Shown piece by piece: positions 6,288-53,808 of a stretch of DNA of 53,808 bases (positions are counted from its first letter, which is position 1; the number at the start of each line of letters is the position of its first letter). The position numbers and the translations under genes are program-made. The DNA is from a virus. The stretch is taken from UHGV virus genome UHGV-0110229; one strand, 5' to 3'. The notes under the pieces were generated by a model. It was not told where the DNA came from. It searched no databases and saw only the letters and a list, made by a program, of their open reading frames with translations.

Positions 6288-7028
6288 TTAGTTACAAGTT
6301 AAAAGCTCAGTGATCCATACTTGTCCTTTAGCAGTGAATACAGCCTGCTCATATCCATCGTGAGTTACCCTCATTTCACCGTAGCCCTCATCAATAAACC
6401 ACTGACTGAATACACGGCGGCGACAGCGAAGATCGTAAACACCAACCGCCGAAAGTTTTCTGTTTAATTTTACGGCTGACATTCCCAGCGGTTTAGCTAC
6501 CTCTGAAGCCGTTCGGTGCATATCGTTTTTGACTATCGCGTCACATACAGCCGCTTTCGGAGCCAGCACCTTGTTTTCAAGCGTAAGCCGTTCATTTTCT
6601 TTCTTAACTAACAATTTTTGCTCAACCTCATCCGCCCATGCGCGGGCTGCCGCAACCGGATCAGTGAAATCCGGCAAAGCTAGTTTGTGTTGCGCCTCCT
6701 CCAACTCTTTAACGCGTTTAATTACCTTCATGCGTTGCTTAACGTCATAGCCAGTGATCAAGCACATTGTTAGCTCTTTATTTAGCAAAACCTCATCAAT
6801 GACGTTGCGACCTTTGTACTGCTTGTACTTAAACAAAAACCCTATAAATTCAAAATCCTGCATTTTTGCAGGATAAAAATCATGTTCAGTAAACCCTAAA
6901 TCTAGCAGCATGTTTTTAATATCACGCACAACCACAGAAGAATGATCCTTGTCTGTTGCTTCTGCTATTTCACGCGATGAAATCATTAATACTTCGCTAT
7001 CGACATCAAAAACCATCAATTCAGACAT
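6288..7028 (-). CDS. Rha-family regulator with KilA-C (antirepressor-type) C-terminal domain
   Basis: Start taken at MSELMVFDV (GGAGAAAA RBS upstream); N-terminus Rha-like, C-terminus KilA-C-like; ORF track gives a longer 6288..7088 version. Confidence 0.55.
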   Translation of the reverse strand: MSELMVFDVDSEVLMISSREIAEATDKDHSSVVVRDIKNMLLDLGFTEHDFYPAKMQDFEFIGFLFKYKQYKGRNVIDEVLLNKELTMCLITGYDVKQRMKVIKRVKELEEAQHKLALPDFTDPVAAARAWADEVEQKLLVKKENERLTLENKVLAPKAAVCDAIVKNDMHRTASEVAKPLGMSAVKLNRKLSAVGVYDLRCRRRVFSQWFIDEGYGEMRVTHDGYEQAVFTAKGQVWITELLTCN

Positions 7029-7160
7029 TGTATTTTCTCCGTAAAACGCGCTACAACGCAAAAATCCCACCGCGTAACCCGTTTGCACAGGTTGCAGTGT
7101 CTTATTGCGTTATAGACGCTCTCAGGTGGCTAATTTTTGATTTACAGGATGGTATGAAGG

Positions 7161-7262
7161 TTATAGATTGACCAGAAGGAACAAACCGCCGAACAAAGCG
7201 ACGTTAACGGCGATTGCAGCAGCGATGGCAAAAGCCAGGGCAAAAACGTGTTTACCGTCCAT
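7161..7262 (-). CDS. Possible small hydrophobic peptide (33 aa, single TM)
   Basis: MDGKHVFALAFAIAAAIAVNVALFGGLFLLVNL with GAGAGG RBS; sits in the gap between the replication initiator and Rha genes. Confidence 0.25.
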   Translation of the reverse strand: MDGKHVFALAFAIAAAIAVNVALFGGLFLLVNL

Positions 7263-7395
7263 TTTGAAATCCTCTCTAAAACGCTCTCTAACGAGATAAA
7301 TAGCTAAAGGTATGCAAGTGTAGCACTCAATGCTTTTTAGCTCGCTGGTGAGCTTGTTTTGCGGGTAATTTTGTGTTTTTGCGTATCGTGTTTGG

Positions 7396-8454
7396 TCAAA
7401 GAGCGCCACATCGTGTATCACGTAGCGTTTTTGGTTTAAGCAGGAAATCAAGTGTCGCAGTGAAGCCATCGCCGAAGTAAAAATCTGAAGCATTGTTTTT
7501 GAACGTTTCAAAGTAGGCGACAAAGCCGTTAATGCTTTTGTCTTTCAGGTAGTCAGTGAACGCATAAATCTTGCGTTCAAGATCCCGATCCAGTTCGGCA
7601 GGTGGCAACATGCCATCAAACGTGCTGTTAAATGCCTCCACTACGTCGGCAGCGTTTGCAGTGGCTGACAGTTTGCGCCATTTTTCAGCATCAGCCAGAT
7701 ACCCATCAAATTTAGTCACCCGGCAAATGTTTATAGGCTTAGGTGTTCCACCACGGCTACGCCATTGCGTTAAAGCCCACTCAATCACTAATGTGATCTC
7801 ATCCTCCGTATACGCTTTACGTGTTTTTGTTTCTGTCAGTAGTTCTACGAATGGCTTAGCATCACGACACTTGCATCCTGCCTTGTCGTTGTAGAAGGCC
7901 AGACAACGCAACGCCGCTTCGTTTACGCCATCCTGACTGACCGTTTTTTGTTCATTTTCGACAATACACGAAGTGTATATATCTTTTTCTCTTTCTTCTT
8001 CTTCTTCTAATTCTAATTCATGACCCTTTCCTGACCCTGTCATGACCCTATCATGACCTTTTTGTGTTTGATTGATTAGCTTTTCTAATTTTAATTGCTC
8101 CTTAGCTGTGTTTATTGCTGCCCTGTATGCGCTTTTAGAAGTCATTGATTGGTCAAGCCTTTTCAATAACTTTAAACAAGTTATGTGGCCCTGAGAACAT
8201 TCGAATAAACCAATTTCGATAAAGTATTTCATCATTTCTTCTATGCGCTTTTCAGTAGATCCTACGTTTCGCGCAATGATTCTTGCATCGTGTCGAAGGT
8301 CAAAATTAAGGTTGTGCTGATCTACGTCGTAAGTTATCAGTTCGAGGCAATACCAATAAAGACCGTAACCTTCCAGGCCATAATCTAATAAAACGTTTTG
8401 AAGTTTTTCATCGCGGTTCGCATCGCTATCATGCTTAAACCACTTCATAATCAT
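7396..8454 (-). CDS. Putative replication initiation protein (phage O/DnaD-like)
   Basis: 352 aa; N-terminus MKWFKHDSD..YGLEGYGLYWY resembles phage replisome-organiser N-terminal domains; acidic linker; sits upstream of the helicase. Confidence 0.5.
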   Translation of the reverse strand: MIMKWFKHDSDANRDEKLQNVLLDYGLEGYGLYWYCLELITYDVDQHNLNFDLRHDARIIARNVGSTEKRIEEMMKYFIEIGLFECSQGHITCLKLLKRLDQSMTSKSAYRAAINTAKEQLKLEKLINQTQKGHDRVMTGSGKGHELELEEEEEREKDIYTSCIVENEQKTVSQDGVNEAALRCLAFYNDKAGCKCRDAKPFVELLTETKTRKAYTEDEITLVIEWALTQWRSRGGTPKPINICRVTKFDGYLADAEKWRKLSATANAADVVEAFNSTFDGMLPPAELDRDLERKIYAFTDYLKDKSINGFVAYFETFKNNASDFYFGDGFTATLDFLLKPKTLRDTRCGAL

Positions 8455-8705
8455 TCCTCCGGCAACATAACTACATAGACACCACTAAACGCATCAATAC
8501 GGCAAACAAACCCTTTGCTAATTAATGCGGCGAAGGCATCATGTACCGTATGAACAGGAAGTTCACACATTTTTGCTACTTCTTCGCGTGATACGCTTGT
8601 CCGCCCCTGGCTATCCGCCGTCTCAGCAAGGGCGATCAAAACTAGTTTTTGAATCGGGCTGTTAAGTTTTACGTTCCATGCTTTGCTAATTATGTTCATG
8701 CTCAT
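8451..8705 (-). CDS. HTH DNA-binding protein, first gene of leftward early operon (Cro/cII-position)
   Basis: 84 aa from ATG at 8705..8703 with AGGAG RBS; HTH-like segment REEVAKMCELPVHTVHDAFAAL; divergent from cI. Confidence 0.45.
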   Translation of the reverse strand: MSMNIISKAWNVKLNSPIQKLVLIALAETADSQGRTSVSREEVAKMCELPVHTVHDAFAALISKGFVCRIDAFSGVYVVMLPEE

Positions 8706-8814
8706 CGTGTTTTCTCCTATGGTTAGAGTGAACGCGCTGGCGGGCATCCAATTAGCATTAGATAGCAGTGACTGACCGCTCAACAGATCCCGCCGTTGCG
8801 TGATATTTGTTTTT

Positions 8815-8846
8815 CGCTTCGCAGCGACACCGGATTTTTAAAGAGC
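8815..8846 (-). promoter_or_regulatory. nut-like site (boxA + boxB-type hairpin) for the leftward operon
   Basis: On the minus strand: AGCTCTTTAAAAATCCGG followed by hairpin CGCT-GCGA-AGCG; shares the 17-mer GCTCTTTAAAAATCCGG with the site at 17292. Confidence 0.5.
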
Positions 8847-8887
8847 TTTTAAGGTATGTTCCTTTTGTGCTTTCCATTATCTTTTTT

Positions 8888-8903
8888 CTTGCATCCTTGC
8901 AAG
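8888..8903. promoter_or_regulatory. Candidate operator palindrome in the cI/cro-side intergenic region
   Basis: CTTGCA-TCCT-TGCAAG perfect 6-bp inverted repeat; further TGCAAG/CTTGCA half-sites at 8921 and 8976. Confidence 0.35.
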
Positions 8904-9011
8904 TATGGACTTACCTTGTCTGCAAGTTTACAGAATGGCGTTAACAGGTCAAGGATTGAAAAATACATTTTGTGACTTGCATCAAACTTTTTTAGCTTAT
9001 AGGGTAGCGAC

Positions 9012-9659
9012 ATGAAAACAAAATGGTATGACTTGGCAAAACAACTCATGCGGGCGCAGGGCATGAGTCAGGATTCACTGGCTGATCTCATGGGGATAAC
9101 AAAAGGCGGCTTGTCGCACTGGCTGAACGGTCGCCGTGAGCCAAATCTTGAAGATATTGCGCGGATCATGCGGGCGCTTGGGCGTCGGCAATTCACTGTC
9201 ACACATGATGGGATGGTCATCGATGATTCTGTTTCTAACACGTTACCGGGAGCGCCACCGCGTGATTTAGGCAGTTACCCGGTTGTTGACTGGAAGGACG
9301 CAGTAAACAATATGGAAGATGCAAGGCGATCAACATTACCACACGTTACAACTAGCGTTATTTGTTCTGATGATAGTTATTGGCTGGTAGCTAAAGGCGA
9401 ATCAATGAACGCTCCGCAAGGATTGAGTATACCAGCGGGGACGATGATACTTGTCGATCCGCACGCGCCAGCTATTGACGGCAAACTAGTTATAGCCCAA
9501 CTGGAGGAAGGGCAAACTCCTACGTTTAAACAGCTTGTTATTGATGGAGGTCAAAGGCTTTTACGTTCACTCAATCCGCTGTATCCACCGATCCCTATGA
9601 ATCCAGAATCTAAAATCATAGGTGTGGTAGTGGATGCGAAGATCGTAAACCTGCCATAA
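9012..9659 (+). CDS. cI: CI-type prophage repressor (HTH + S24 LexA-like autopeptidase)
   Basis: 215 aa; N-terminal HTH (QDSLADLMGITKGGLSHWLNG); C-terminal S24 motifs (AKGESM Ser, later Lys). Confidence 0.85.
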   Translation: MKTKWYDLAKQLMRAQGMSQDSLADLMGITKGGLSHWLNGRREPNLEDIARIMRALGRRQFTVTHDGMVIDDSVSNTLPGAPPRDLGSYPVVDWKDAVNNMEDARRSTLPHVTTSVICSDDSYWLVAKGESMNAPQGLSIPAGTMILVDPHAPAIDGKLVIAQLEEGQTPTFKQLVIDGGQRLLRSLNPLYPPIPMNPESKIIGVVVDAKIVNLP

Positions 9660-9664
9660 ACACT

Positions 9665-9689
9665 AGCCGCCGAATGGCGGCTTTTCTTT
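9665..9689 (+). terminator. Rho-independent terminator after cI
   Basis: AGCCGCC-GAAT-GGCGGCT stem-loop followed by TTTTCTTTG. Confidence 0.6.
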
Positions 9690-9781
9690 GCTAAAAAACA
9701 CCAAAACGTAAACAGAAAACCATGTTTATCATTTAAATATCAAGTGCTTATAAAATTTTATAAAAAAGTATACAAAATGTG

Positions 9782-9819
9782 TTGACTCGTGTTTTTACGG
9801 GGCGTATATTTCGAGTCAA
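9782..9819 (+). promoter_or_regulatory. Sigma70 promoter (PL-like) embedded in an operator palindrome
   Basis: TTGACT-17 nt-TATATT; flanked by perfect inverted repeat TTGACTCG (9782-9789) / CGAGTCAA (9812-9819); AT-rich upstream. Confidence 0.6.
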
Positions 9820-9852
9820 AAGGAGGAAGCAAGGCAGGGAAAGAAGGTTACT

Positions 9853-9890
9853 TGCTCTTTAATAATCTGGTCAGCCGCTGGAAGTGCGGC
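9853..9890 (+). promoter_or_regulatory. nutL-like site (boxA + boxB hairpin)
   Basis: TGCTCTTTAATAA matches boxA (rrn-type TGCTCTTTAACAA); then hairpin GCCGC-TGGAAGT-GCGGC; lies between promoter and the N-like gene. Confidence 0.6.
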
Positions 9891-9946
9891 AATTAACGAA
9901 GATGATTTTTTATTAAGTATCATCAAGGATATAAGGAGATCAGATC

Positions 9947-10237
9947 ATGACAGTTACAATCATGTATGGCAAATGTGACAGTAAACTGAATGCCAGGGAA
10001 CGCAGAAGAATAAAAAGAGAAAACGAAAGAAAATCATCACCTGCAATTAATAAAACAGACAATGTGGATAAAGCTATTCGCTTTGCAAACGAGGAAAGAT
10101 GCAAACCAAATAGCATTAAAGAACGTCGCAAAGGAGCAGTAAAATGGTATACGGAAAATGAAAGCGGCAACTACTACCACGCAACGCAACCACGCCATTT
10201 AGGGGAAAAACCACTTGATAAAGTCCGTTACCATTAA
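9947..10237 (+). CDS. N-type transcription antiterminator (P22 gp24-like, N-terminal arginine-rich motif)
   Basis: 96 aa; N-terminus MTVTIMYGKCDSKLNARERRRIKRE resembles P22 N as recalled (MTVITYGKS..NAKTRRHERRRK); AGGAG RBS; first gene after promoter and nut. Confidence 0.7.
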   Translation: MTVTIMYGKCDSKLNARERRRIKRENERKSSPAINKTDNVDKAIRFANEERCKPNSIKERRKGAVKWYTENESGNYYHATQPRHLGEKPLDKVRYH

Positions 10238-20486: not shown

Positions 20487-20694
20487 CCGCAAGCGCCTTG
20501 TAAGGGCATATGACAAAGCATTAAAGGCTTTTGATGATCTGCGAAGCAATAAGCGCCAGCGCCGCAAATGGGCGCGCATGCTTGTTCATGAATGGCATTA
20601 TCCTGATGCTGCCTTGATAGAAGGTGCACCGCCATTTACACAGGAACAAGCCGACGAAGTAGCTAACGATAACGTTTATTATATGATGTGGTGA
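20476..20694 (+). CDS. Hypothetical protein
   Basis: ATG 20476 within track ORF 20440..20694. Confidence 0.3.
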   Translation: MKSNRKRLVRAYDKALKAFDDLRSNKRQRRKWARMLVHEWHYPDAALIEGAPPFTQEQADEVANDNVYYMMW

Positions 20695-20698
20695 TAAT

Positions 20699-21064
20699 AT
20701 GCAAATAATCATTGATTATCTTTGTCATGCTGCAAATACGCTTTTTGGTTTTTATCAACAACCATTCCTCAAAGAATGGGACGAAATGCTGAATGACATC
20801 ATTGATAAAGGGTTAATAATGGAGGTTGACGATCTCACAATCAAATTTAATTACGATGGTAAAGAATATCTAATTTGGGTTGGTAATAGATGGTATTCAT
20901 ACGGTCATATTTATTCAATTGGTGGTAAGTTCATTAAAAGAAACCAGGAATTTAGGCCACGCTTCCGCACAATGCGCCGCCTGCATGACCTGCATATGAA
21001 GATATTTGAAGATCAGGAAGAGCGCGAACTATTCAAGATCTACGGGGATAAATCATGGAATTAA
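20699..21064 (+). CDS. Hypothetical protein
   Basis: 121 aa ORF. Confidence 0.35.
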   Translation: MQIIIDYLCHAANTLFGFYQQPFLKEWDEMLNDIIDKGLIMEVDDLTIKFNYDGKEYLIWVGNRWYSYGHIYSIGGKFIKRNQEFRPRFRTMRRLHDLHMKIFEDQEERELFKIYGDKSWN

Positions 21065-21285
21065 AAATCTGGCAGGCTATCGACGTAGTTGATAATGCGT
21101 TATCTATGTTCGCCACCGATGGGAAACGCGTAGCAATCACTACATGGACGCGCAACTATGATGATATTTCTTTTCGTCGCAGAACGGCGGAGTGGTTTTT
21201 CTCTGAAGGCGGCTACACGATGAACATCGCACAGCTTGCCAGAATGAAAGATGAAAAGCTGGTGGACAGCTACACAACTGCGTAA
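21055..21285 (+). CDS. Hypothetical protein
   Basis: 76 aa ORF. Confidence 0.3.
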   Translation: MELKIWQAIDVVDNALSMFATDGKRVAITTWTRNYDDISFRRRTAEWFFSEGGYTMNIAQLARMKDEKLVDSYTTA

Positions 21286-21295
21286 CGGGGTAAAT

Positions 21296-21529
21296 ATGCG
21301 TATCTATGAACACAAGCGGGATAAAACCCGCTTTTTTGTTCGTGCTGGCGTGGCGTACCAGTATCACGAATGCGGTTACATTGAGGCGCTTGCTTACGAT
21401 CTGGACTTCGAGCAAGAAAAGGAATGGTTCGATTTTAAAATTTACCGTAAGCGCAAACCAACTCGCGACGAGCGCCACGCTATCCGTGAATTTTTAATCA
21501 GCATTGAACGTTGGGAGACAGAAGAGTGA
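21296..21529 (+). CDS. Hypothetical protein
   Basis: ATG 21296 (MRIYEHK) within track ORF 21251..21529. Confidence 0.3.
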   Translation: MRIYEHKRDKTRFFVRAGVAYQYHECGYIEALAYDLDFEQEKEWFDFKIYRKRKPTRDERHAIREFLISIERWETEE

Positions 21530-21753
21530 AAGTTAAATTCTTGCACGATCACGGTTATCCGTCACTGAAACAGGTTGTTGGTAAGGTTGTTAACGTCGTC
21601 CATAGCGATGATGTCACTTGCATGATTAACGGTGCTGATTTAATCGCCGCTGGCGCTGATGATCATTACATCAATCCTGCCTGGTCGTATACGTTCAGCC
21701 TGGGTGACTTCGTTGGCGACAAGGGGCGCGGGCTGGAAGTAGTCGAGGGTTAA
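21526..21753 (+). CDS. Hypothetical protein
   Basis: GTG start overlapping previous stop, GGGAGA RBS. Confidence 0.3.
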   Translation: MKVKFLHDHGYPSLKQVVGKVVNVVHSDDVTCMINGADLIAAGADDHYINPAWSYTFSLGDFVGDKGRGLEVVEG

Positions 21754-21757
21754 CATC

Positions 21758-22006
21758 ATGGACGTTTACGAAGATCTATACCTCCAGACAAACACCCGCA
21801 CTTTTTATTTTCTGAAAAACGGCGTCGTATATCGCAGCGACGACGGGGTAATAATGAAGGAGTGGTTATTTAAGCGTAAAGACCTACTCGACGATCTGGT
21901 TTTTGCCGGGATATTTCGTAAACGTCCGGCTAACCTGGAAGAAGAAATGTTGATTGAGGTATATCAAAATGAAAATCAGGGTAAGTTATTTCCGGGCGAA
22001 AGATAA
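21758..22006 (+). CDS. Hypothetical protein
   Basis: 82 aa ORF. Confidence 0.3.
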   Translation: MDVYEDLYLQTNTRTFYFLKNGVVYRSDDGVIMKEWLFKRKDLLDDLVFAGIFRKRPANLEEEMLIEVYQNENQGKLFPGER

Positions 22007-22220
22007 GGCAACAGGAAAGCAGATGGCGATCCTGGTAAACGAGGCCAATTACATGTTTGTGCTTCAACCGTGGTGTATAGCTGACTATAACGATAATTAT
22101 CGCCGCCACAGCGCGCGTGGTGCTGTAGGGATGAAAGGCTGGCAGCCGCGCGACATGGAAAGCTATTGTGAATGGAAGCTGATAGCAAAATACACGGTCG
22201 ATTATAAAGGTGTGTTCTGA
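21969..22220 (+). CDS. Hypothetical protein
   Basis: ATG 21969 with GAGGT RBS; overlaps the previous ORF by 38 nt, so one of the two may be wrong. Confidence 0.3.
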   Translation: MKIRVSYFRAKDKATGKQMAILVNEANYMFVLQPWCIADYNDNYRRHSARGAVGMKGWQPRDMESYCEWKLIAKYTVDYKGVF

Positions 22221-22330
22221 TGGTATTGCTTTCACGCAATAAATATAAAACGTGATCTACCTCGCAAAATATACGAAATGGCATTGTTTCGGCAGTGCCA
22301 TTTTGTTATATATAAGCCACCGAAAGACGG

Positions 22331-22642
22331 ATGGGCAAAATCATGAAAAGCAATAAATTCATAGCGTGCTGTTTTGTTGAAGTACCTGAAGGTGATGTCT
22401 TCTGCAATTACGAATTTAAAGACAGTTGGGGAAAATCTCATGTTGTAGTTGGCAAGCGCGGGGACTGGTTATACATAACAGACGATGACATGATTTTTAC
22501 TGTAAGCCAGTTATTCAAAATTAAGTCAGAAAATAGTGAAGCACCACTTTGCAGAATGTTTAACATGCATTATCACTCACTATTATTGTTAAAACAAGAT
22601 GTTGTAAACAAAGCGCGTAGCTTACCTGGTGCCGAATTTTAA
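22331..22642 (+). CDS. Hypothetical protein (AT-rich cargo island)
   Basis: 103 aa ORF; preceded by an inverted repeat/hairpin at 22276-22303. Confidence 0.35.
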   Translation: MGKIMKSNKFIACCFVEVPEGDVFCNYEFKDSWGKSHVVVGKRGDWLYITDDDMIFTVSQLFKIKSENSEAPLCRMFNMHYHSLLLLKQDVVNKARSLPGAEF

Positions 22643-22665
22643 TTTCTTACGAAGGAGAATGACAA

Positions 22666-22866
22666 ATGTCTAAATTTATCAGCGTTAAAGTTTTTCGTGG
22701 CACTTTTCCAGAAGATGAAAAAAATGGACAATTCGCCGGACAACCTGGCGCATGTTTCCGTGTAGCAACTGACAACGAAGATTGCGTAAAATGCTACCAC
22801 GTATCTGAACCTCCTTTTGACGTGAAATATCTTGATAATGCAGATCACGTTAAATTTTTATCTTAG
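22666..22866 (+). CDS. Hypothetical protein
   Basis: 66 aa ORF with strong RBS GAAGGAGA. Confidence 0.35.
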   Translation: MSKFISVKVFRGTFPEDEKNGQFAGQPGACFRVATDNEDCVKCYHVSEPPFDVKYLDNADHVKFLS

Positions 22867-22965
22867 TATCATTGGAACTTAATCCATTCCCTGGTGATGA
22901 AGTGGAATTGATTGGCGCTGAACTGGTCGCTGAATACAAAATGACTGAAGGTGTAACAGGGGGAA

Positions 22966-44582: not shown

Positions 44583-47500
44583 ATGAGTAGCGGCGGCGGC
44601 AAAGCCAAAACACCAACATTATTAAACGATAACCTGTTTCATAAACAGTTTTATCGTGTTTTGGACATTCTCAGCGAAGGCCCAATCTACGGCCCTGTAA
44701 ACCAGAAAGCGCCATTAAACAGCGTAATGCTTAATGACAGCCCAATCACTGACGCCAACGGCGGCACATCGGTCCCTGGCGTTAGCGTGGCGTGGCGTAA
44801 TGGTACGGCTGACCAGTCACCAATCAACGGCTTCAACGCCATTGAATCAACCGTTATTGTTAACGCAAAAGTGACTCACGATACGCCAATAATCAGGACT
44901 GTTTCAGATCCAAACGTTAACCGCGTAAGGCTGAATCTTGGCGTTGATTCTCTGGTTCAGTCAGATGATAAGGGCAATCAATACAATACATCTGTTGTGT
45001 TGATGGTTGATGTTAAGCCATCATCGTCAACAACGTGGTCACTGGTCAAAGATATTACCATTGGCCCTGGTAAACAAAGCGGCGAGTATATGGAAGCGCA
45101 CATCATCCAAGCGCCGGATGAAAAACCGTTTGATATTCGCGTTCGTCGCGTAACGCCAGACAGTAAAAGCGATCTACTTCGCAATGACACCAGGTGGAGC
45201 AGTTACAGCGAGATAATAGACGATAACTTGTCTTATCCCCATACCGCTGTAGCAGGCGCGGTAATTGACCACGATCAGTATACCGACACGCCGACACGCA
45301 CCTATCACATGCGCGGCCTGATTGTTGACGTGCCTGATAACTACGACCCGGAAACACGCACATACTCAGGTTTATGGCTTGGTGGCTTCAAAAAGGCATA
45401 CACCAACAACCCTGCATGGCTTTTCCGGTATCTGGTGAAAAATGAACGCTTCGGGCTTACCCGCCACGCCGGTTACATTGACGTTGATGATGGCGCATTA
45501 TATGTGCTTTCTCAATACTGCGACCAGTTGGTAAACGACGGTTACGGCGGCCTTGAACCACGCATGACGCTTAACGCTTACATCACTGAGCAAATTAGCG
45601 CCCGCGACTTGCTGGACAACATTGCAGGCATGTTCCGTGGTATCGCGTTATGGGACGGGCAGCGCCTTACGGTGATGATTGATGCACCGCAAGATCCAAT
45701 TGCCACCATCACGAATGCAAACGTCGTTGATGGCGCATTTACTCGTTCAAGTATCGCCCGCGCGGAATCTTACAACGCTGTGATTGTGTCATGGACTGAC
45801 CCGGAAAACGGTTGGGAACAATCAAAAGAATACGTAGCAGATGATGAACTGATCGCCCGCGATGGTTACAACGAAACCACTTTGGAGGCTTTTGGTTGCA
45901 CGTCACGCGGGCAGGCGTACCGCGCTGGCAAATGGCTGATAGAAACAGCAAAACGCGAACCCTCAAAATTCACGTTTAAAATGGCCCGTGACGCGATTCA
46001 CTTCACCCCAGGGGATATTATCGAGATACTCGACAATAACCGCGCTGGCGCTCGTTTAGGTGGTCGCATCGTGGCGAATAACGGGAAAGTGATAACCGTA
46101 GACAAGGTTGATTCTGACCTGGTGGCGGCTGGTGACACTATCAGCTTACTGGACAGCGACGGTAAGTTTAAAAAACATCAGATCACTGGGGTTAACGGAA
46201 ACAATATTACCCTTGCGGCAGCGCCCGCATGGATTCGTAACGGAACCGTATTTGCCGTTTCAACTGAATCCGCAAAACCTGTTCTGTGCCGAATTACCAG
46301 CGTAGCGGAAACCGAAAATAACAGCGTGTACACCATTGAGGCTGCACAGCACGATCCTCACAAACAGGCTGTAGTTGATGAAGGCGCAATCTTCGAGGTA
46401 AACAACGACACGCTTAATCACTTCCGCGTGCCGAACATTGAAAATCTGAAGGTGTTAAATGTTGGTTCTGAAACTGTTCAATGTCGCGCAACATGGGAAA
46501 CACAGACGACAACGCATCGCCTGACCTTTGAAATCCGCGTATATAACACCGAAGGCCGCATTGTGGCAACTTATGAAACCACGAATTACCGCTATGATTT
46601 TTATGGCCTCGACGCTGGCAGCTACACGCTTGGTATTCGCGGGCGTAATGACACTGGCATGAAGGGTGCGGAAAGTATTGTAGACCTGGTTATTGGTGCG
46701 CCAGCGGCCCCGATTGGAGTCAATTGGGTTCCAGGTGTCTTCCAGGCAACGGTATATCCGATCAGCAAAACAACCCTTACCACTGATACGGCATATGATT
46801 TCTACTACTCAGGTGAAAATCAGATCACAGATCCATCAAAAGTAACCACGCTGGCGCAATTCACCGGGCGCGGCTACCAATGGACTTTTGGCGGTATGAA
46901 TACGGGACACACTTATTACGTCTATGTGCGCACGCGTAATGCCTTTGGTGTGTCAGACTTCGTTGAGGCATCAGGTAAACCGACTGAAAACTTCGACGAA
47001 ATCAGCGACTACGTGATGAAGGATGTCATGGAGTCAGAACAATTCAAGGACATGATTGGCGACATTAAAGATCTTGGCGACCGTGCCGACCTTATCGAAA
47101 GCGCTACAAATGACCTTAAAAACGCTACTGACAACCTCAAAACTGCAACTGACACCCTGACAAACGTCACTGACGAATTGAGGACTGATACTGACAACCT
47201 GACAAACATCACTGAGGATTTAAGGACTGACACTGACAGCTTAATCACAGAAACAGGAGTCATAAAAGCTGACACGGACACACTGAAAAAAGAAACGGAA
47301 GATCTCTACAAAAAAGTTAAAGAGAACGCCGATGATATTGGTCAGCATGAGTCCAGAATCGACTTATTAGAAGTGTCAAGCGAAAAAGTTGACAGCGAAC
47401 TGGCGCAGGCAAAAGCAAGCCTGCAAAACGCTTCATTGGCGCTTATCAACAACTCGCTTGCACAGACAAACACGCGCGTAACCCTTACCGCCCAGTATAA

Positions 47501-50024
47501 GAAAGGCATGACGGAAACGAAAGCGGAAATTGACCGTATTGACAACGTTATCGCTGAAGAGAAAAAAGCGACAGCGGAATCACTGGAAACCATCACGGCA
47601 GAAATGAACACGATGGATTCCAACCTTAAAGGTCAGATTTCCAGCGTGGAACGTGCAGTGGCTGACGAGGCCAGCGCACGCGCCGAAGCTATTAACGGTG
47701 TGAACGCCTCAATAGACAATCTCGACAAGAAAACTGACGCCAGCGTTAAACGTCTGGACCAGGCAATCGCCGATGAATCGAGCGCGCGCACCCAGGCTGT
47801 CAGCGACGTTAACGCAAGCATTTCAGCACTTGACAAGAAAACTGACGCCAGCGTTAAACGCCTTGATCAAGCTATTGCAGACGAAACAAGCGCACGCGCC
47901 GAAGCTATCAATGGGGTAAATGCCTCAGTATCAGCACTTGATAAGAAAACCGATTCAAGCATAAGCCGCCTTGATAAAGCTATTGCCGACGAAACGAGCG
48001 CGAGAACCGAAGCCATCAATGGTGTGAAGGCATCAATCTCCACACTTGACGGCAAGGTAACAAGTAACGTTAATCGCCTTGATAAAGCTATTACAGACGA
48101 AACTAAGGCACGCACTGACGCTATCAGCAGCGTTAATGCAAGCATCAGCACGCTTGAAAGCAACACTGAATCAGAGGTGAACAGACTCGACCAGGCCATC
48201 GCTGACGAGGCCAGCGCACGCGCACAGGCCATCAGTGGCGTGAAGGCATCGATAGACACCCTTGATAAGAAAACAGACGCCAGCGTTTCCCGTCTTGATA
48301 AAGCGATAGCAGACGAAACTCAGGCAAGAAGCGCCGCAATAACAGATGTTAAGGCTGATTTGACAACGCTCGAAAACAGCACAAACGCCAGCGTCAAACG
48401 CCTTGACCAGGCGATTGCTGACGAATCAAGTGCCCGCGCTGAAGCAATATCAGGCATTAACGCAGAGATCGGCAGCATCGAAAACAACGTTGACAAAAAC
48501 AGCGATGATATAAATCAGACCAAAGCAAGCCTGCAAAACGCTTCATTGGCGCTTATCAACAACTCGCTTGCACAGACAAACACGCGCGTAACCCTTACCG
48601 CCCAGTATAAGAAAGGTCGCAAGGAAACAAACGCGCAGATTGATCGTATTGACAGTGTTATCGCTGAAGAGAAAAAGGCTACAGCCGAAGCAATTGGCGT
48701 GGTAAAAGCATCGATCACCGATCTTGACAAGAAAACAGACGCCAGCGTTTCCCGCCTTGACAGAGCGATTGCAGACGAAACAAGCGCACGCAGCGAGGCT
48801 ATCAGCGGCGTGAACGCATCAATTTCCACCATTGATAGTAATGTGAAAAGCAATATTACCAGGATGGATAAGGCTATCGCCGACGAAACAAAAGCACGCG
48901 CAGACGCAATAAGCGGCCTTAATGCATCGCTTACCAGTACGATCACCTCGAAAGTATCTGAGGTATCAACGGCACTGGCTACGCATGAGGAATCAAGCGC
49001 TGAAAAATTCAGCCAGATCTCAGCGTCATTCGAACTAGTAGACGCAAGTATCACTGAATGGTCGCAGGCGATGGCTACGGCTGACGAGGCGTTATCAACG
49101 AAAATCGATCAGCTAACAGTGACCGTTAACGGGAATAAGACGGCAATAGAAACGACATCTAAAGCATTGACCGACTTCAAGGGCAATGTTGATGCGTCGT
49201 ACTCTATCAAGCTGGCGACCGACAACAACGGAATGAAATACGCAACAGGTATGTCGCTTGGCCTCACTGGTGACGGCACTAACTTTCAGTCGCAGTGTAT
49301 TTTCCTTGTTGACCGTTTCGTGTTAATGACCGCAGCAAACGGCACATATACAACGCCTTTCTATGTCACCAATGGCGCAATGTATGTAAGAGAAGCGTTT
49401 ATTAAGGACGGAACTATCAACTCCGCCAAAATAGCTGATCGAATACAGTCAGTTAATTACAGCTGGGAAAACGGTACAGGATGGGCGATAGATAAAGCCG
49501 GTGACGCAGTATTTAACCAGGTAACCGTAAGGGGTACGGTATACGCTTATGCTGGTGTGTTTAACGGTACTGTTTACGCAACTGGCGGTAAATTTACTGG
49601 AGCAGTTGAAGCTACAAGTTTTGTTGGTGACGTGGCAAGTATGTCAGTGATAAACGAGGATGTATTTCCGTCAATGAGGGGAAATGGCAGCAGGCGCGTT
49701 TCGAAAACTTATCTTGATTCAAGTTCATCAAGTTTATCAAAAACAGTTTACGTTATGATTCCGTATGATTTGTCATACCATACATATAGTGAATCTTCTC
49801 GCATCAATGTAACTATAAATATAAGCGGACACACAAAAACAATTAATATAGAAAGGCCAGCATCAGGCCAAGCAATGTCATCTGTCGCGGTGCACTGTGT
49901 ATCTGGCCTCACATACCCAACAATTACAGTCGAGGTGACGGAAAACTTTACCAATACATCTAATGCAGCAATAAGAAAACCAGGTTTAATACTTATAACA
50001 AGAAGTTCAGGAACATGGATATAA
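44583..50024 (+). CDS. J: Tail tip central fiber / host specificity protein J, extended with coiled-coil repeat region and distinct C-terminal domain
   Basis: 1813 aa; N-terminal part lambda J-like; then about ten 36-aa tandem repeats and a separate C-terminal domain. Confidence 0.85.
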   Translation: MSSGGGKAKTPTLLNDNLFHKQFYRVLDILSEGPIYGPVNQKAPLNSVMLNDSPITDANGGTSVPGVSVAWRNGTADQSPINGFNAIESTVIVNAKVTHDTPIIRTVSDPNVNRVRLNLGVDSLVQSDDKGNQYNTSVVLMVDVKPSSSTTWSLVKDITIGPGKQSGEYMEAHIIQAPDEKPFDIRVRRVTPDSKSDLLRNDTRWSSYSEIIDDNLSYPHTAVAGAVIDHDQYTDTPTRTYHMRGLIVDVPDNYDPETRTYSGLWLGGFKKAYTNNPAWLFRYLVKNERFGLTRHAGYIDVDDGALYVLSQYCDQLVNDGYGGLEPRMTLNAYITEQISARDLLDNIAGMFRGIALWDGQRLTVMIDAPQDPIATITNANVVDGAFTRSSIARAESYNAVIVSWTDPENGWEQSKEYVADDELIARDGYNETTLEAFGCTSRGQAYRAGKWLIETAKREPSKFTFKMARDAIHFTPGDIIEILDNNRAGARLGGRIVANNGKVITVDKVDSDLVAAGDTISLLDSDGKFKKHQITGVNGNNITLAAAPAWIRNGTVFAVSTESAKPVLCRITSVAETENNSVYTIEAAQHDPHKQAVVDEGAIFEVNNDTLNHFRVPNIENLKVLNVGSETVQCRATWETQTTTHRLTFEIRVYNTEGRIVATYETTNYRYDFYGLDAGSYTLGIRGRNDTGMKGAESIVDLVIGAPAAPIGVNWVPGVFQATVYPISKTTLTTDTAYDFYYSGENQITDPSKVTTLAQFTGRGYQWTFGGMNTGHTYYVYVRTRNAFGVSDFVEASGKPTENFDEISDYVMKDVMESEQFKDMIGDIKDLGDRADLIESATNDLKNATDNLKTATDTLTNVTDELRTDTDNLTNITEDLRTDTDSLITETGVIKADTDTLKKETEDLYKKVKENADDIGQHESRIDLLEVSSEKVDSELAQAKASLQNASLALINNSLAQTNTRVTLTAQYKKGMTETKAEIDRIDNVIAEEKKATAESLETITAEMNTMDSNLKGQISSVERAVADEASARAEAINGVNASIDNLDKKTDASVKRLDQAIADESSARTQAVSDVNASISALDKKTDASVKRLDQAIADETSARAEAINGVNASVSALDKKTDSSISRLDKAIADETSARTEAINGVKASISTLDGKVTSNVNRLDKAITDETKARTDAISSVNASISTLESNTESEVNRLDQAIADEASARAQAISGVKASIDTLDKKTDASVSRLDKAIADETQARSAAITDVKADLTTLENSTNASVKRLDQAIADESSARAEAISGINAEIGSIENNVDKNSDDINQTKASLQNASLALINNSLAQTNTRVTLTAQYKKGRKETNAQIDRIDSVIAEEKKATAEAIGVVKASITDLDKKTDASVSRLDRAIADETSARSEAISGVNASISTIDSNVKSNITRMDKAIADETKARADAISGLNASLTSTITSKVSEVSTALATHEESSAEKFSQISASFELVDASITEWSQAMATADEALSTKIDQLTVTVNGNKTAIETTSKALTDFKGNVDASYSIKLATDNNGMKYATGMSLGLTGDGTNFQSQCIFLVDRFVLMTAANGTYTTPFYVTNGAMYVREAFIKDGTINSAKIADRIQSVNYSWENGTGWAIDKAGDAVFNQVTVRGTVYAYAGVFNGTVYATGGKFTGAVEATSFVGDVASMSVINEDVFPSMRGNGSRRVSKTYLDSSSSSLSKTVYVMIPYDLSYHTYSESSRINVTINISGHTKTINIERPASGQAMSSVAVHCVSGLTYPTITVEVTENFTNTSNAAIRKPGLILITRSSGTWI
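47690..48940 (+). repeat. In-frame tandem 108-bp (36-aa) coding repeats within J, plus a 95-bp perfect direct repeat
   Basis: Repeat unit VNASIxxLDKKTDASVxRLDxAIADExSARxEAIxG about 10 times; identical 95-bp segment at 47412-47506 and 48522-48616. Confidence 0.8.
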
Positions 50025-50031
50025 AAAACAA

Positions 50032-50056
50032 CCCCGCTTCGCGCGGGGTTTTCTTT
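50032..50056. terminator. Bidirectional rho-independent terminator after J and the lipoprotein gene
   Basis: CCCCGC-TTCGC-GCGGGG with A-run upstream and TTTTCTTTT downstream. Confidence 0.65.
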
Positions 50057-50304
50057 TAGTAGTTAGCTACACAGTTAGAAGGGCTACCGATGCGGCGCAT
50101 GTTGTGATCGAGTTCGTGACACCATTGACCAGTATATGGCAGTTTTTCAGTGTCATAGACTAGATGCCCGCCACCATCATAAACAACATCTTGCGGAATT
50201 ACTCCACTATTCGGCAGGTTATGCAATGCAGCCTCTTTGTCAACAGAGCAACCAGTAAGAGCAACAGCCGCAGCGAACAAAACCACTTTGAACACGTTTT
50301 TCAT
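50056..50304 (-). CDS. Small lipoprotein moron (candidate Cor/Llp-type superinfection exclusion protein)
   Basis: 82 aa; signal peptide with lipobox LTGC; opposite strand between J and stf. Confidence 0.5.
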   Translation of the reverse strand: MKNVFKVVLFAAAVALTGCSVDKEAALHNLPNSGVIPQDVVYDGGGHLVYDTEKLPYTGQWCHELDHNMRRIGSPSNCVANY

Positions 50305-50481
50305 TTTTGAACCCTCATTCTTGTTTGTTAATCCGGTTCACCCGGTGACTTAAATATCCGGCAAAACCACATTTCGTATATTGACACAGATCAACAAATA
50401 CATTTTGTGTAAGCAGAAAATGCAACACAGATCACAAAATGGTAGAATTATTCCGTTAATTAACAAAATGGAGTCATCGAG

Positions 50482-53400
50482 ATGATTTACACAACTGGAA
50501 CAATTGCCATCAGCGGCAATACTGTTACAGGCACGGGCACAAACTTTTCCGCGCCGCTTTCTCTTATTCGTGTAGGTTGCACGCTCATTGCTGTTGGCAA
50601 CCCTGTACAGATCTTTACCATCACGGAAATCAAAAGTGGTACTGAACTGTCAGTGACGCCAGCGGCTAACCCCGCCATCCCTGCCGGGACAAAATTTAGC
50701 ATCCTGCTATCTGACTCGATCTCAGTTGATGGGCTTGCTCAGGACGTGGCTGAAACCCTGCGTTACTACCAGAGCAAAGAAACAGAAATCGCCTCCGCTG
50801 TAGAGTGGTGGGAAGATTTCGGCGGCGAAGGTCAGTTGGATCAGCTTCTTACCAACATTCGCGCAGAAACAGCACAATCAACCGCCAACGCTCAAAAAAC
50901 AGAAACTGACAAAAACGCAGCAGAAGCGTCAAAAACAGCGGCTGCAAAATCTGCCACAGCAGCGAAAACATCAGAAACTAACGCTAAGGCAAGCGAGACG
51001 GCAGCGAAAACAAGCGAAACCAACGCCAAAACATCAGAGAACAGGGCGCAAGAATATCTGAATCAGATAATAAGGTCTAACAACGCATTGGTACAATGCA
51101 ATTGGCCTGTTACAACTGAAGCCTTTGCCCGTTATGTGAAGATCGCTAAACTAACCGATCCGGGTGCAGTAAGCTGCCATTTAACACTAATGATCGCCAA
51201 TGGCGGTAACTACGGTACAAGTTACGGGAATATTGACTTTGTAGAGATCTCCGCTCGCGGTCTTAGCGATGTGGAAAGCATAACCAGTGAAAATATAACT
51301 AAATTTTTAAGTGTTCGCCGCCTCGGATCGCCTAACCTTGCTAATGACAACCAAATGCGTTACGGCCTGGTTAAAGGTGACGGCTATATCGAGGTCTGGT
51401 GCTACCAGCGAGCTTTTATTAAAGAAACAAAGGTTGCGATACTGGCACAGACTGGCAGAACTGAATTATACATTCCTGAAGGGTATGTCGTTCAGGAAGC
51501 CGAACCCGCTGGATATGTTGAAAGCCCAGCAGCAAGGATTTACGATCAGGTAAACAAACCAAGCAAGGCAGACTTAGGCCTTTCTAATGCTATGCTTATA
51601 GGCGCTTTTGGTCTTGGCGGCAGCGGTCCGTCATCAAACGGCATGATGAGCAATACAGAGCTATTAAAAGCACTGCGTGCAAAAGGTAGTCATTTCTGGC
51701 GTGCTGATAAGCCTGACGGAAGCACAGCGACACATTACGCCCACGGTTCTGGTATATTCTCTCGGTGCGGTGATACATGGTCGGCGATCAACATAGAATA
51801 CGAAAATGCCAGAGTTAAGATTTTCGCTGGCAATGATAACAAACTTGAAACTGCAACTTATGCCGTAAATGAGCTATACGGAACCAAAAATAAGCCGTCG
51901 AAATCTGACGTTGGACTTGGCAACGTAACTAATGATGCGCAGGTGAAAAAATCCGGCGATATTATGTCTGGCGACCTGGCGGTCTATAAAGATACTCCGT
52001 CACTATTCCTTAGGGCAAAAGATGGAGCAGGTGCTGCCGCTGTGCGGTTTTTCACTGATCAAAACCTGGAGCGCGGCATAATCTATGCTATTCAAAACAC
52101 TGATACGCTTGGAGAAGTTCGCATTAGGGCTAAAAACGCAAAAGGTGAAACAAACGGTGATCTTGTTGTTCGCCACAACGGGGTGGTTGAGGTTCAGAAT
52201 CTCACAGCGGCTAAAAAAGTAAAAAGCGTAAACGCAGAGCTTGCAAACACATCAACTAACACGCTTGAGAACACGTTAAAAATCAGCGGTCAACAGCATA
52301 CTCCATTACTTTTAACGCGTACCGGTTATACTGAAAACCTATCCATTGGCTTTAAGGTTGACAACCTTGATCAAAAATATCTCGGAATCAATGGCAGTGG
52401 AGATCTAGCTTTTGGTAAAAATGCTGATCATAAACAAAACAGCAGAGTGATTACGCAAGCAATACTGGATAGCGGGGTGACGGTAGGCGGCAAAACAACA
52501 TTTTCTGACCTTGCCACATTTAACGCAGGTATGGCTGGAGCAATTGAGCCTGAAAGCATTTCTGAAGTGGCTGTTGATCTTAATAATCTGACCATAAAAG
52601 GCACAGATAAAGGTTCAGTTAAATACTATCACTGCAGAACTGCCGGAGGCGGTGCAAATATTACCAATAAGCCTGCTGGCATAGGTGGTAACTTTTTGCT
52701 TCGTGTAGAGTCAATTCGTAAGATCACGGATTCAGATTATACAAACTTGCAAACCCTTGTTGGCACAGACACAAAACAAATATACGTTCGCTATTGTGAA
52801 AATGGCAATTGGTCTGCATGGAGTCAGATTGTTGTTTCAGGAAGAAATCAGGATGTAACCGTCAGGTCGTTAACCTCGACGACTCCATCAAAATTAGGTG
52901 GCGGGCGTATTGATGTGCTTGGGAGTACGTCAGATTATAACAGCATGAATTGTACCGTGCGCGGTGTTGATAGCAGCGGAACTAATTCTGCGTGGTCAGT
53001 AGGCACATCAGTAGACACTGGCAAAATGTTGTTCCTGAAAAACCACAGAAGCAGCGCTCAAGTGCTGTTAAATGGCGATGACGGCGCGGTTCAACTACTA
53101 AGCGGTACTGTCAACGGTGCTACAGCACAGGCGCTAACCATCAACAAAGATGAGGTTAACTCAACTGCTGATTTAGTAATTAGAAAACAAACAGGGACTG
53201 GCAATCGTTTTGTTTTACAGAACGCAGGTAATGCAGAACTACCGTTTTCTGTCAGTGTGTGGGGTTCCAGTACTCGACAAAACGTTTTTGAGGTTGCCAC
53301 GTCTGCTGCGTATCTGTTTTATGCGCAAAAAACGTCAGCAGGCCAGTTGTTTGATGTAAATGGCGCTATTAATTGCACAACGCTGAATCAGTCATCAGAC

Positions 53401-53808
53401 CGCGACCTTAAAGACGATATTCTCGTTATCAGCGACGCGACGAAAGCAATCCGTAAAATGAACGGATACACCTACACGCTCAGGGAAAACGGGATGCCTT
53501 ATGCTGGCGTTATTGCACAGGAAGTAATGGAGGCGCTACCGGAAGCCGTAGGATCGTTTACTCGTTACGGTGAAGAATTGCAGGGTCCGACCATTGATGG
53601 CAACGAGCTACGCGAAGAAACGCGTTACCTCAATGTTGATTATGCGGCGGTGACTGGTTTACTTGTCCAGGTGGCACGCGAAACGGATAACCGCGTCACC
53701 AAACTGGAAGAGGAAAACGCCAGCCTGAAAGCTAACATTGCCGCAATGGATGAGCGTATCGCAAAACTTGAAGCGCTTGTCAGTCAGTTGACCGGAAGCG
53801 AAGAATAA
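50482..53808 (+). CDS. stf: Side tail fiber protein with C-terminal intramolecular chaperone (peptidase S74-like) domain
   Basis: 1108 aa; lambda Stf-like N-terminal region with KTSETNA repeats; C-terminal SDRDLKDDI Ser-Lys motif and coiled-coil end; stop at the last base of the window. Confidence 0.75.
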   Translation: MIYTTGTIAISGNTVTGTGTNFSAPLSLIRVGCTLIAVGNPVQIFTITEIKSGTELSVTPAANPAIPAGTKFSILLSDSISVDGLAQDVAETLRYYQSKETEIASAVEWWEDFGGEGQLDQLLTNIRAETAQSTANAQKTETDKNAAEASKTAAAKSATAAKTSETNAKASETAAKTSETNAKTSENRAQEYLNQIIRSNNALVQCNWPVTTEAFARYVKIAKLTDPGAVSCHLTLMIANGGNYGTSYGNIDFVEISARGLSDVESITSENITKFLSVRRLGSPNLANDNQMRYGLVKGDGYIEVWCYQRAFIKETKVAILAQTGRTELYIPEGYVVQEAEPAGYVESPAARIYDQVNKPSKADLGLSNAMLIGAFGLGGSGPSSNGMMSNTELLKALRAKGSHFWRADKPDGSTATHYAHGSGIFSRCGDTWSAINIEYENARVKIFAGNDNKLETATYAVNELYGTKNKPSKSDVGLGNVTNDAQVKKSGDIMSGDLAVYKDTPSLFLRAKDGAGAAAVRFFTDQNLERGIIYAIQNTDTLGEVRIRAKNAKGETNGDLVVRHNGVVEVQNLTAAKKVKSVNAELANTSTNTLENTLKISGQQHTPLLLTRTGYTENLSIGFKVDNLDQKYLGINGSGDLAFGKNADHKQNSRVITQAILDSGVTVGGKTTFSDLATFNAGMAGAIEPESISEVAVDLNNLTIKGTDKGSVKYYHCRTAGGGANITNKPAGIGGNFLLRVESIRKITDSDYTNLQTLVGTDTKQIYVRYCENGNWSAWSQIVVSGRNQDVTVRSLTSTTPSKLGGGRIDVLGSTSDYNSMNCTVRGVDSSGTNSAWSVGTSVDTGKMLFLKNHRSSAQVLLNGDDGAVQLLSGTVNGATAQALTINKDEVNSTADLVIRKQTGTGNRFVLQNAGNAELPFSVSVWGSSTRQNVFEVATSAAYLFYAQKTSAGQLFDVNGAINCTTLNQSSDRDLKDDILVISDATKAIRKMNGYTYTLRENGMPYAGVIAQEVMEALPEAVGSFTRYGEELQGPTIDGNELREETRYLNVDYAAVTGLLVQVARETDNRVTKLEEENASLKANIAAMDERIAKLEALVSQLTGSEE

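Follow-up and report, generated by a model that had tools for sequence, protein, structure and literature searches.

A probable set of exchangeable host-recognition modules at the right-hand end of a temperate coliphage genome of the mEpimmI group

How does a temperate coliphage renew the parts by which it recognizes its host? The question is raised by the right-hand end of the virus genome UHGV-0110229, which carries the gene for the central tail-tip fibre protein (J), a lipoprotein gene (lpp) and a fibre gene (stf). The window, by which is meant the whole stretch of 53,808 nucleotides that was analysed, holds an entire genome in prophage order, which belongs to the non-lambdoid temperate coliphages of the mEpimmI (mEp021-like) group: the first 24 kb has ~90% nucleotide identity to mEp010 across 91% of the length, and the order J, lpp, fibre gene at the tail end is that of mEp554, mEp010 and MagusPhagus. 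This group was described in 2025 as having a variable J C-terminus, J-internal repeats, LamB or OmpA as receptors and several types of exclusion lipoprotein; the fibre gene is mostly labelled 'hypothetical protein' in the deposited records, and a self-cleaving chaperone is unmentioned (PMC11893012). The region is very probably the host-recognition end of such a phage, composed of three exchangeable modules, namely J with its swapped end, lpp, and a Stf with a presumably self-cleaving S74 domain.

The region is real and well explained, and represents ordinary modular exchange. Fibres that cleave themselves through an S74 domain are already established, as are exchanged J ends and lipoproteins that block receptors, and no new biological question is opened. 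What the region offers is a clean, well-delimited case of host range built from interchangeable parts, in which the breakpoints of the J end and of the shaft and tip of the fibre have been located, the variable part of the fibre being flanked by a helical region with KTSETNA repeats and by the S74 domain. The practical value lies in annotation and engineering; the mapped junctions are places at which other fibre tips or J ends could be brought in to retarget such phages.

The receptor-binding end of J

An earlier note on this DNA had taken the last roughly 300 bp of J, by eye, to be AT-richer than the surrounding tail genes and to encode a horizontally swapped receptor-binding domain. A GC computation over windows agrees with the first of these claims: the final 325 bp of J (49700-50024) have a GC content of 0.357, where the window averages 0.462 and the remainder of J has 0.488, and windows of the same size that are as low make up 0.54% of the total, which places this end in the lowest ~0.5%. 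The stretch 49551-50040 is the sole one with GC <0.38 beyond 41010, and hence the sole one within J, lpp and stf. The deficit falls mainly on third codon positions, GC at these positions (GC3) being 0.296 in the J end as against 0.50.

The compositional break coincides with a break in homology to the group relatives. The tail-tip region of J up to ~aa 1620 is 75-100% identical to mEp010, mEp554 and MagusPhagus. Nucleotide homology is lost at ~49405 (mEp554, MagusPhagus) and at 49644 (mEp010), and is regained at 49992-50021, just within the 3' end of J. Past ~aa 1690, J is 15-18% identical to mEp010 and mEp554, which carry another J-end allele, and 55% identical to MagusPhagus, and this end is 42-45% identical to the J ends of Seuratvirus (CAjan, Seurat, WildeMaa and others) and Dhillonvirus (EP23, Maverick). 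Composition, the homology break to the group and the occurrence of the closest relatives in other phage genera thus support the identification of the J C-terminus as a swapped receptor-binding module, as the earlier note had proposed. The last 125-150 residues of J would be the receptor-binding domain, replaced by recombination with an allele of a lower-GC pool shared with Seuratvirus and Dhillonvirus.

Low GC might instead have arisen in place, either from the amino-acid composition of the J end, in which S, T, I, V and N abound, or from a mutational bias towards AT combined with diversifying selection. This origin would fit the finding that J ends are lower in GC than the rest of J in 6/6 phages compared, whatever the genome GC. 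However, the amino acids of the last 125 codons lead to an expected GC of 0.456 under the codon usage of J and stf, whereas 0.381 is observed, and the shortfall is found at synonymous third positions. Furthermore, nucleotide homology to all group relatives halts and restarts sharply around the module, and the J-end protein is nearer to the ends of MagusPhagus, Seuratvirus and Dhillonvirus than to those of mEp010 and mEp554. An origin without exchange is decidedly improbable on these grounds. Exchange of the J end is the preferred reading, with one point to be set against it: since J ends are low in GC in all six phages, low GC marks a circulating class of J-end modules and does not date a recent transfer.

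The J-end allele is rare. A word-indexed search of 5.8 billion proteins gave two relatives, the better of which is 66% identical, and an exhaustive search among 1.84 billion cluster representatives gave matches in 25 clusters (best E 2e-12). The whole cassette is present in only 3/5426 complete E. coli genomes, at ~90-91.5% identity. The last 154 aa of J matched none of the C-terminal chains of lambda J in the PDB, so that a LamB-binding C-terminal domain of the lambda type was not recognized by this search. The one weak PDB match near the J end (8JVM, E 0.0055) spans aa 1516-1676, which is essentially the tail-tip domain and not the divergent core.

The fibre Stf and its C-terminal domain

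The fibre was previously proposed to end in a chaperone domain with an SDxxxK Ser-Lys motif, typical of endosialidase and of the T5 L-shaped fibre, and this proposal has been strengthened. The family PF13884 matches Stf with 47.2 bits against a gathering cut-off of 22 (E 2.8e-12), aa 972-1023 corresponding to profile positions 1-57, and the match in the T5 L-shaped fibre protein pb1 (4UW7/4UW8; PMC4690869) begins at Ser1264, the same profile position as S972 of Stf. In T5 pb1, Ser1264 acts with Lys1269, and the S1264A mutant remains uncleaved (PMC4690869). S972 and K977, the ends of the SDRDLK motif at aa 972-977, are aligned with this pair to give the same Ser-x4-Lys dyad, and both are invariant in 23 homologues. 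The active site of pb1 is completed by Arg1250 and Asp1239 of neighbouring chains, which lie upstream of the Ser; a conserved WG..R..VFEV motif precedes S972 in Stf, where the alignment to T5 is unreliable. A 98%-identical prophage protein has been named 'pyocin knob domain-containing S74 family peptidase' by the NCBI Prokaryotic Genome Annotation Pipeline (PGAP).

The fold points in the same direction. An AlphaFold2 (AF2) model of Stf aa 965-1108, with a predicted local distance difference test score (pLDDT) of 80.3, consists of a mixed alpha/beta part, a long beta-hairpin (strands 59-72 and 78-88 of the model) and a helix of ~50 residues (90-141), which in Stf is predicted to run over ~aa 1054-1105 (~53641-53796). 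The nine best Foldseek matches of this model in the PDB are to the intramolecular chaperone domains of MyRF (MyRF ICA, 7DC3), the GA-1 neck appendage (3GUD) and endosialidase K1F (endoNF, 3GW6), with probabilities of 0.98-1.00, after which the E-value rises 60-fold, from 0.009 to 0.55. The likeness to these three is one of fold over the C-terminal 137 residues, with only 13-24% identity in sequence and with unrelated passenger domains upstream.

Some results weigh against this assignment. Against the solved domains, the chaperone model has template-modelling scores (TM-scores) of only 0.38-0.49; such modest values are to be expected when a single chain is modelled from a trimer whose chains intertwine. 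When the C-terminal alignment of Stf was used as a profile against PDB sequences, no T5 pb1 or endoNF chains were found, the matches being fibre motifs of T4 gp34 and S16 gp37 and, weakly, MyRF. In addition, an AF2 model of aa 781-1108, tip and chaperone together, is too poor (pLDDT 56) to serve for a fold search. Because of the poor tip model and the outcome of the profile search, the fold-level support is taken from the model of the chaperone alone. Homology to tested proteins nevertheless supports the assignment of the end of Stf to the S74 intramolecular chaperones, with a Ser-Lys dyad and with the chaperone of the T5 L-shaped fibre as a relative. The C-terminal 137 residues would drive folding of the trimer, and the chaperone would then cut itself off between Ser971 and Ser972 by means of Ser972 and Lys977, exposing the binding tip. 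In this scheme a separate fibre-assembly gene is neither needed nor present; T5 pb1 also has no separate chaperone gene. In the relatives and prophages stf is the last gene before ydaN/zntB or the genome end, with no tfa gene after it; the window itself ends at the stf stop.

Over its whole length, Stf is a five-part mosaic, as seen in an identity profile per 50 aa and in nucleotide and protein comparisons. Its first 100 residues are ~92-98% identical to the fibres of MagusPhagus, mEp554 and mEp010, with lower identity beyond, to aa 145. Residues 3-206 match the depolymerases Depo32 (phage GH-K3, 7VYV) and DpK2 (phage RAD2, 7LZJ) of Klebsiella siphoviruses (E ~4e-36), which have in common with Stf an N-terminal anchor and a KTSE-rich triple-helical bundle, the bundle of DpK2 being included in its N-terminal domain. 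The earlier note had described this end as a lambda-Stf-like anchor with KTSETNA repeats. The repeats are indeed present (KTSET/KTSEN at aa 162, 176 and 183), but the anchor is of another type: the family PF08400 (phage_tail_N) is not found in Stf at E<=0.01, and it is found in the fibres of Ayreon (E 5.4e-72) and WildeMaa (E 2.2e-22). The KTSETNA repeats are a helical linker common to many fibre types and not an anchor. That Stf is a lambda-type side fibre with a PF08400 anchor, dependent on a separate Tfa chaperone, is therefore scarcely tenable. The repeats and the shaft are, to be sure, common to the lambdoid Stf proteins of Ayreon, 640R1 and mEp460, but these have the lambda-type PF08400 anchor, to which the domain test gives a negative answer in Stf, and its aa 1-145 are 10-26% identical to lambdoid fibres as against the identity to mEpimmI fibres given above; the lack of tfa in the relatives and prophages is a further point against dependence on it.

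The shaft begins a different history. From 50917 on, stf has 76-80% nucleotide identity to shaft homologues, including 76% to T5 pb1 over 50917-51977. At the protein level, aa 164-815 are 58% identical to pb1 aa 179-819 and aa 146-1108 are 73% identical to Ayreon Stf; the nearest relative is T5 pb1 for aa 151-400 (68-84%), and Ayreon and 640R1 for aa 400-800. The least conserved part in comparison with the shaft-homologous fibres (Ayreon, 640R1, T5 pb1) is aa 501-600. For the tip (aa 801-950) the values are 84-100% with Ayreon and 640R1, 64-82% with mEp460 and <32% with T5 pb1, the identity of 84-100% extending over tip and S74 domain, and the S74 region (~aa 1001-1100) is 90-96% identical to mEp010, mEp554 and MagusPhagus. 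The last 60 residues are again nearest to the fibres of its own group (92-96%), the mEpimmI relatives having otherwise a different shaft and tip and lengths of 655-1160 aa as compared with the 1108 aa of Stf. T5 pb1 differs in its N-terminal anchor and in its polymannose-binding domain (aa 970-1263), which has no counterpart in Stf: no significant alignment is obtained past pb1 aa 819, with an identity of 18-32% per 50-aa bin (<32% in the domain), and the ligand may differ. Stf would thus be a trimeric side fibre that is docked to the tail by a group-specific N-terminal anchor, and its shaft and tip would have been imported from a pool of T5 pb1 and lambdoid (Ayreon-type) fibres. The KTSETNA-type linker and the chaperone domain, both conserved, flank the variable part and are probably the recombination sites for exchange of shaft and tip.

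The match to the depolymerases might suggest that Stf is an enzymatic tailspike degrading polysaccharide rather than a binding fibre. This match, however, is limited to the anchor and helical bundle, neither a beta-helix nor a lyase family was detected in Stf by the Pfam and NCBIfam scans, and the body of Stf is homologous to the non-enzymatic shaft of T5 pb1 and to fibre families, whereas DpK2 and Depo32 have beta-helix capsule depolymerase bodies. An enzymatic tailspike is very improbable, and a depolymerase identity was rejected, as the anchor alone matches.

A second AT-rich module, which had been suggested for the centre of stf, could not be upheld. The GC content of this part (52100-52900) is 0.423, which is at the 14th percentile of same-size windows and within normal variation, and no homology breakpoint is seen there against Ayreon, the closest fibre; the dip was accordingly rejected as a swapped module.

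The stretch before the cleavage site (53255-53390, aa ~925-970; WGSSTRQNVFEV...FYAQ...VNGAIN) matches a repeated motif of the proximal long tail fibre protein gp34 of T4 (4UXE, 5NXF; E ~2e-9). To judge from this match, the stretch preceding S972 looks like a conserved fibre element ahead of the chaperone.

The lipoprotein and the probable receptor

The lpp product has a signal peptide with the lipobox LTGC and is 97.6% identical to Lpp of mEp010 (Lpp010), type C Lpp being 94-98% identical within mEpimmI. It matches phrog_12984 'lipoprotein' (E 1.6e-26), and no NCBIfam family was found for Lpp or for Stf. Expression of Lpp010 excludes mEp010, mEp044, mEp554 and lambda, all of which use LamB (PMC11893012). 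Homology to tested proteins thus marks the lpp product as a putative exclusion lipoprotein: lpp, which is convergent to J, would make in a lysogen a lipoprotein that blocks LamB-using phages, as experiments have demonstrated for Lpp010. The context of lpp has 92% nucleotide identity to the mEp010-like backbone.

What, then, does the exchanged J end bind? LamB is suggested by two independent associations, the LamB dependence of J-end relatives and the near-identity of lpp to Lpp010. The Seuratvirus phages WildeMaa (Bas23), GottfriedDienst (Bas21) and SeppeHuegi (Bas24), whose J ends are 43-45% identical to that of the window, are all LamB-dependent (S5 table of PMC8594841), and all three of these BASEL phages that match the J end carry an lpp homologue at the same position. 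In WildeMaa, Maverick and MagusPhagus, too, this J-end type is paired with an lpp homologue; the product of the reverse-strand gene following J is 55% (WildeMaa) and 68% (Maverick) identical to the lipoprotein of the window. The Seuratvirus lateral fibre likewise has an S74 tail, with 47% identity over aa 838-1089. These phages differ from that of the window in being virulent, in having a much shorter J without the long repeat insertion, and in the PF08400 anchor of their fibre. On the strength of both associations, J of the window phage appears likely to bind the outer-membrane porin LamB.

Three points count against LamB. The assignment is built on ~44% identity of the J end together with the lpp association; the LamB-dependent BASEL Seuratvirus KurtStettler is not among the J-end matches; and mEp013 shows that J and exclusion by Lpp are separable, small changes being able to decouple them (PMC11893012). 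The J end may bind another receptor such as OmpC, OmpA or LptD, with the type-C lpp left over from an earlier LamB-specific allele. The right-hand recombination boundary is just inside the 3' end of J, so that lpp would have kept its mEp010-like surroundings when the J end was replaced, and both the only ~44% identity to LamB-dependent Seuratvirus J ends and the rarity of the allele are in keeping with such a history. Yet the same J-end type is paired with an lpp homologue in WildeMaa, Maverick and MagusPhagus, and LamB is used by 3/3 BASEL phages with this type, which makes another receptor rather unlikely.

The J end and lpp might form a portable cassette for LamB adsorption and exclusion that moves between temperate mEpimmI and virulent Seuratvirus or Dhillonvirus phages, only the J end having been replaced here in an unchanged type-C lpp context. 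Such a cassette is unlikely. Were it real, the phage could keep LamB and yet, like mEp013, evade exclusion by the lipoprotein of its group; alternatively, it could gain a new receptor while its lysogen is still protected against LamB-using rivals.

A prophage of E. coli WCHEC025970 (L011 1797-2944) has a 98% identical stf, but a reverse-strand DUF6453 protein and a 70-aa protein replace lpp after a different J end. This combination of a near-identical stf with a different J end and neighbours indicates that the J end and the gene downstream of it are exchanged independently of stf.

Architecture of J and further features

The features of the region are collected in Table 1.

Table 1. Positions of J, lpp, stf and their parts in the window
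Feature	Position	Strand	Basis or remark
J, central tail-tip fibre protein, 1813 aa	44583..50024	+	Open reading frame (ORF); Pfam; PDB lambda J; mEp554 J 79% identical
Helix-rich insertion of ~700 aa in J (aa ~830-1500)	47070-49080	+	Between second Ig domain (end aa 811) and Phage_Tail_Tip domain
Array of eleven 108-nt (36-aa) repeats inside J insertion	47649..48928	+	Repeat analysis
Phage_Tail_Tip domain of J (aa 1521-1658), conserved in group	49143..49556	+	PF09327, E 2.4e-39
AT-rich receptor-binding end of J (aa 1660-1813); divergent core ~aa 1690-1813	49560..50021	+	GC, GC3, homology break, identities
Terminator-like bidirectional hairpin between convergent J and lpp	50030..50050	.	GC-rich hairpin, T runs on both strands
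lpp, putative type-C superinfection-exclusion lipoprotein, 82 aa, lipobox LTGC	50056..50304	-	Lpp010 identity; phrog_12984
stf, fibre gene, 1108 aa	50482-53808	+	ORF; stop codon = last base of window
Stf N-terminal anchor (aa 1-145), mEpimmI and Webervirus-depolymerase type	50482..50916	+	Group fibre identity; PDB 7VYV, 7LZJ
Stf shaft (aa 146-815), opening with Ala/Thr/Lys/Glu-rich KTSETNA repeats (aa ~150-190)	50917..52926	+	T5 pb1, Ayreon identity; phrog_24369 E 2.8e-272
Stf distal tip (aa 816-971), probable receptor-binding part of mature fibre	52927..53394	+	Identity profile
Putative S74 intramolecular chaperone (aa 972-1108)	53395..53805	+	PF13884; Ser972 codon 53395-53397, Lys977 codon 53410-53412

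Ahead of its exchanged end, J is a protein of the lambda J kind with a long insertion. Five Pfam domains are found (FNIII-A_GpJ, Phage-tail_3, Ig_J, Ig_J_second and Phage_Tail_Tip), aa 1-851 match the lambda J structure 8IYK in a PDB search (E 3.8e-182), and the overall identity to J of the mEpimmI relatives is 73-79%. The score for NCBIfam lambda_TipJ is 718 bits, under the cut-off of 1950, and J is therefore not a lambda equivalog. Within the helix-rich insertion, a 177-nt segment is duplicated 1110 nt apart (47406-47582 and 48516-48692, 90% identical), and aa 827-1290 give weak SMC-like and coiled-coil matches; repeats at positions 950-1475 have been reported for J of the group (PMC11893012). 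The insertion separates the lambda-J-like N-terminal part from the distal domains and probably makes for a longer central fibre. J of the relatives measures 1478-1828 aa, and the central fibre may accordingly differ in length among them.

The final bases of the window (53806-53808) are the stop codon of stf. Related prophages continue within ~400 bp after stf into ydaN and zntB of the host, and in mEp010 and mEp554 stf is followed by a terminator and the genome end. Since the window stops at the stf stop and the relatives continue in this way, the window is cut at the right-hand prophage end.

Between J and lpp, a terminator is annotated at the same position in mEp554 and mEp010. The lpp gene, ahead of which a weak promoter-like site is seen on the minus strand (50331-50303), is apparently transcribed independently. 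Between lpp and stf lies a 38-aa ORF with a TTG start (50350-50466, minus strand), which is annotated as hypothetical in mEp554, mEp010 and MagusPhagus; it has no family match, is located in an AT-rich intergenic stretch (GC 0.356), and may be no real gene. Further stretches with GC <0.38 occur in the early/regulatory half of the genome, at 6691-10200 and 20571-22890, with a minimum of 0.323 near 20661.

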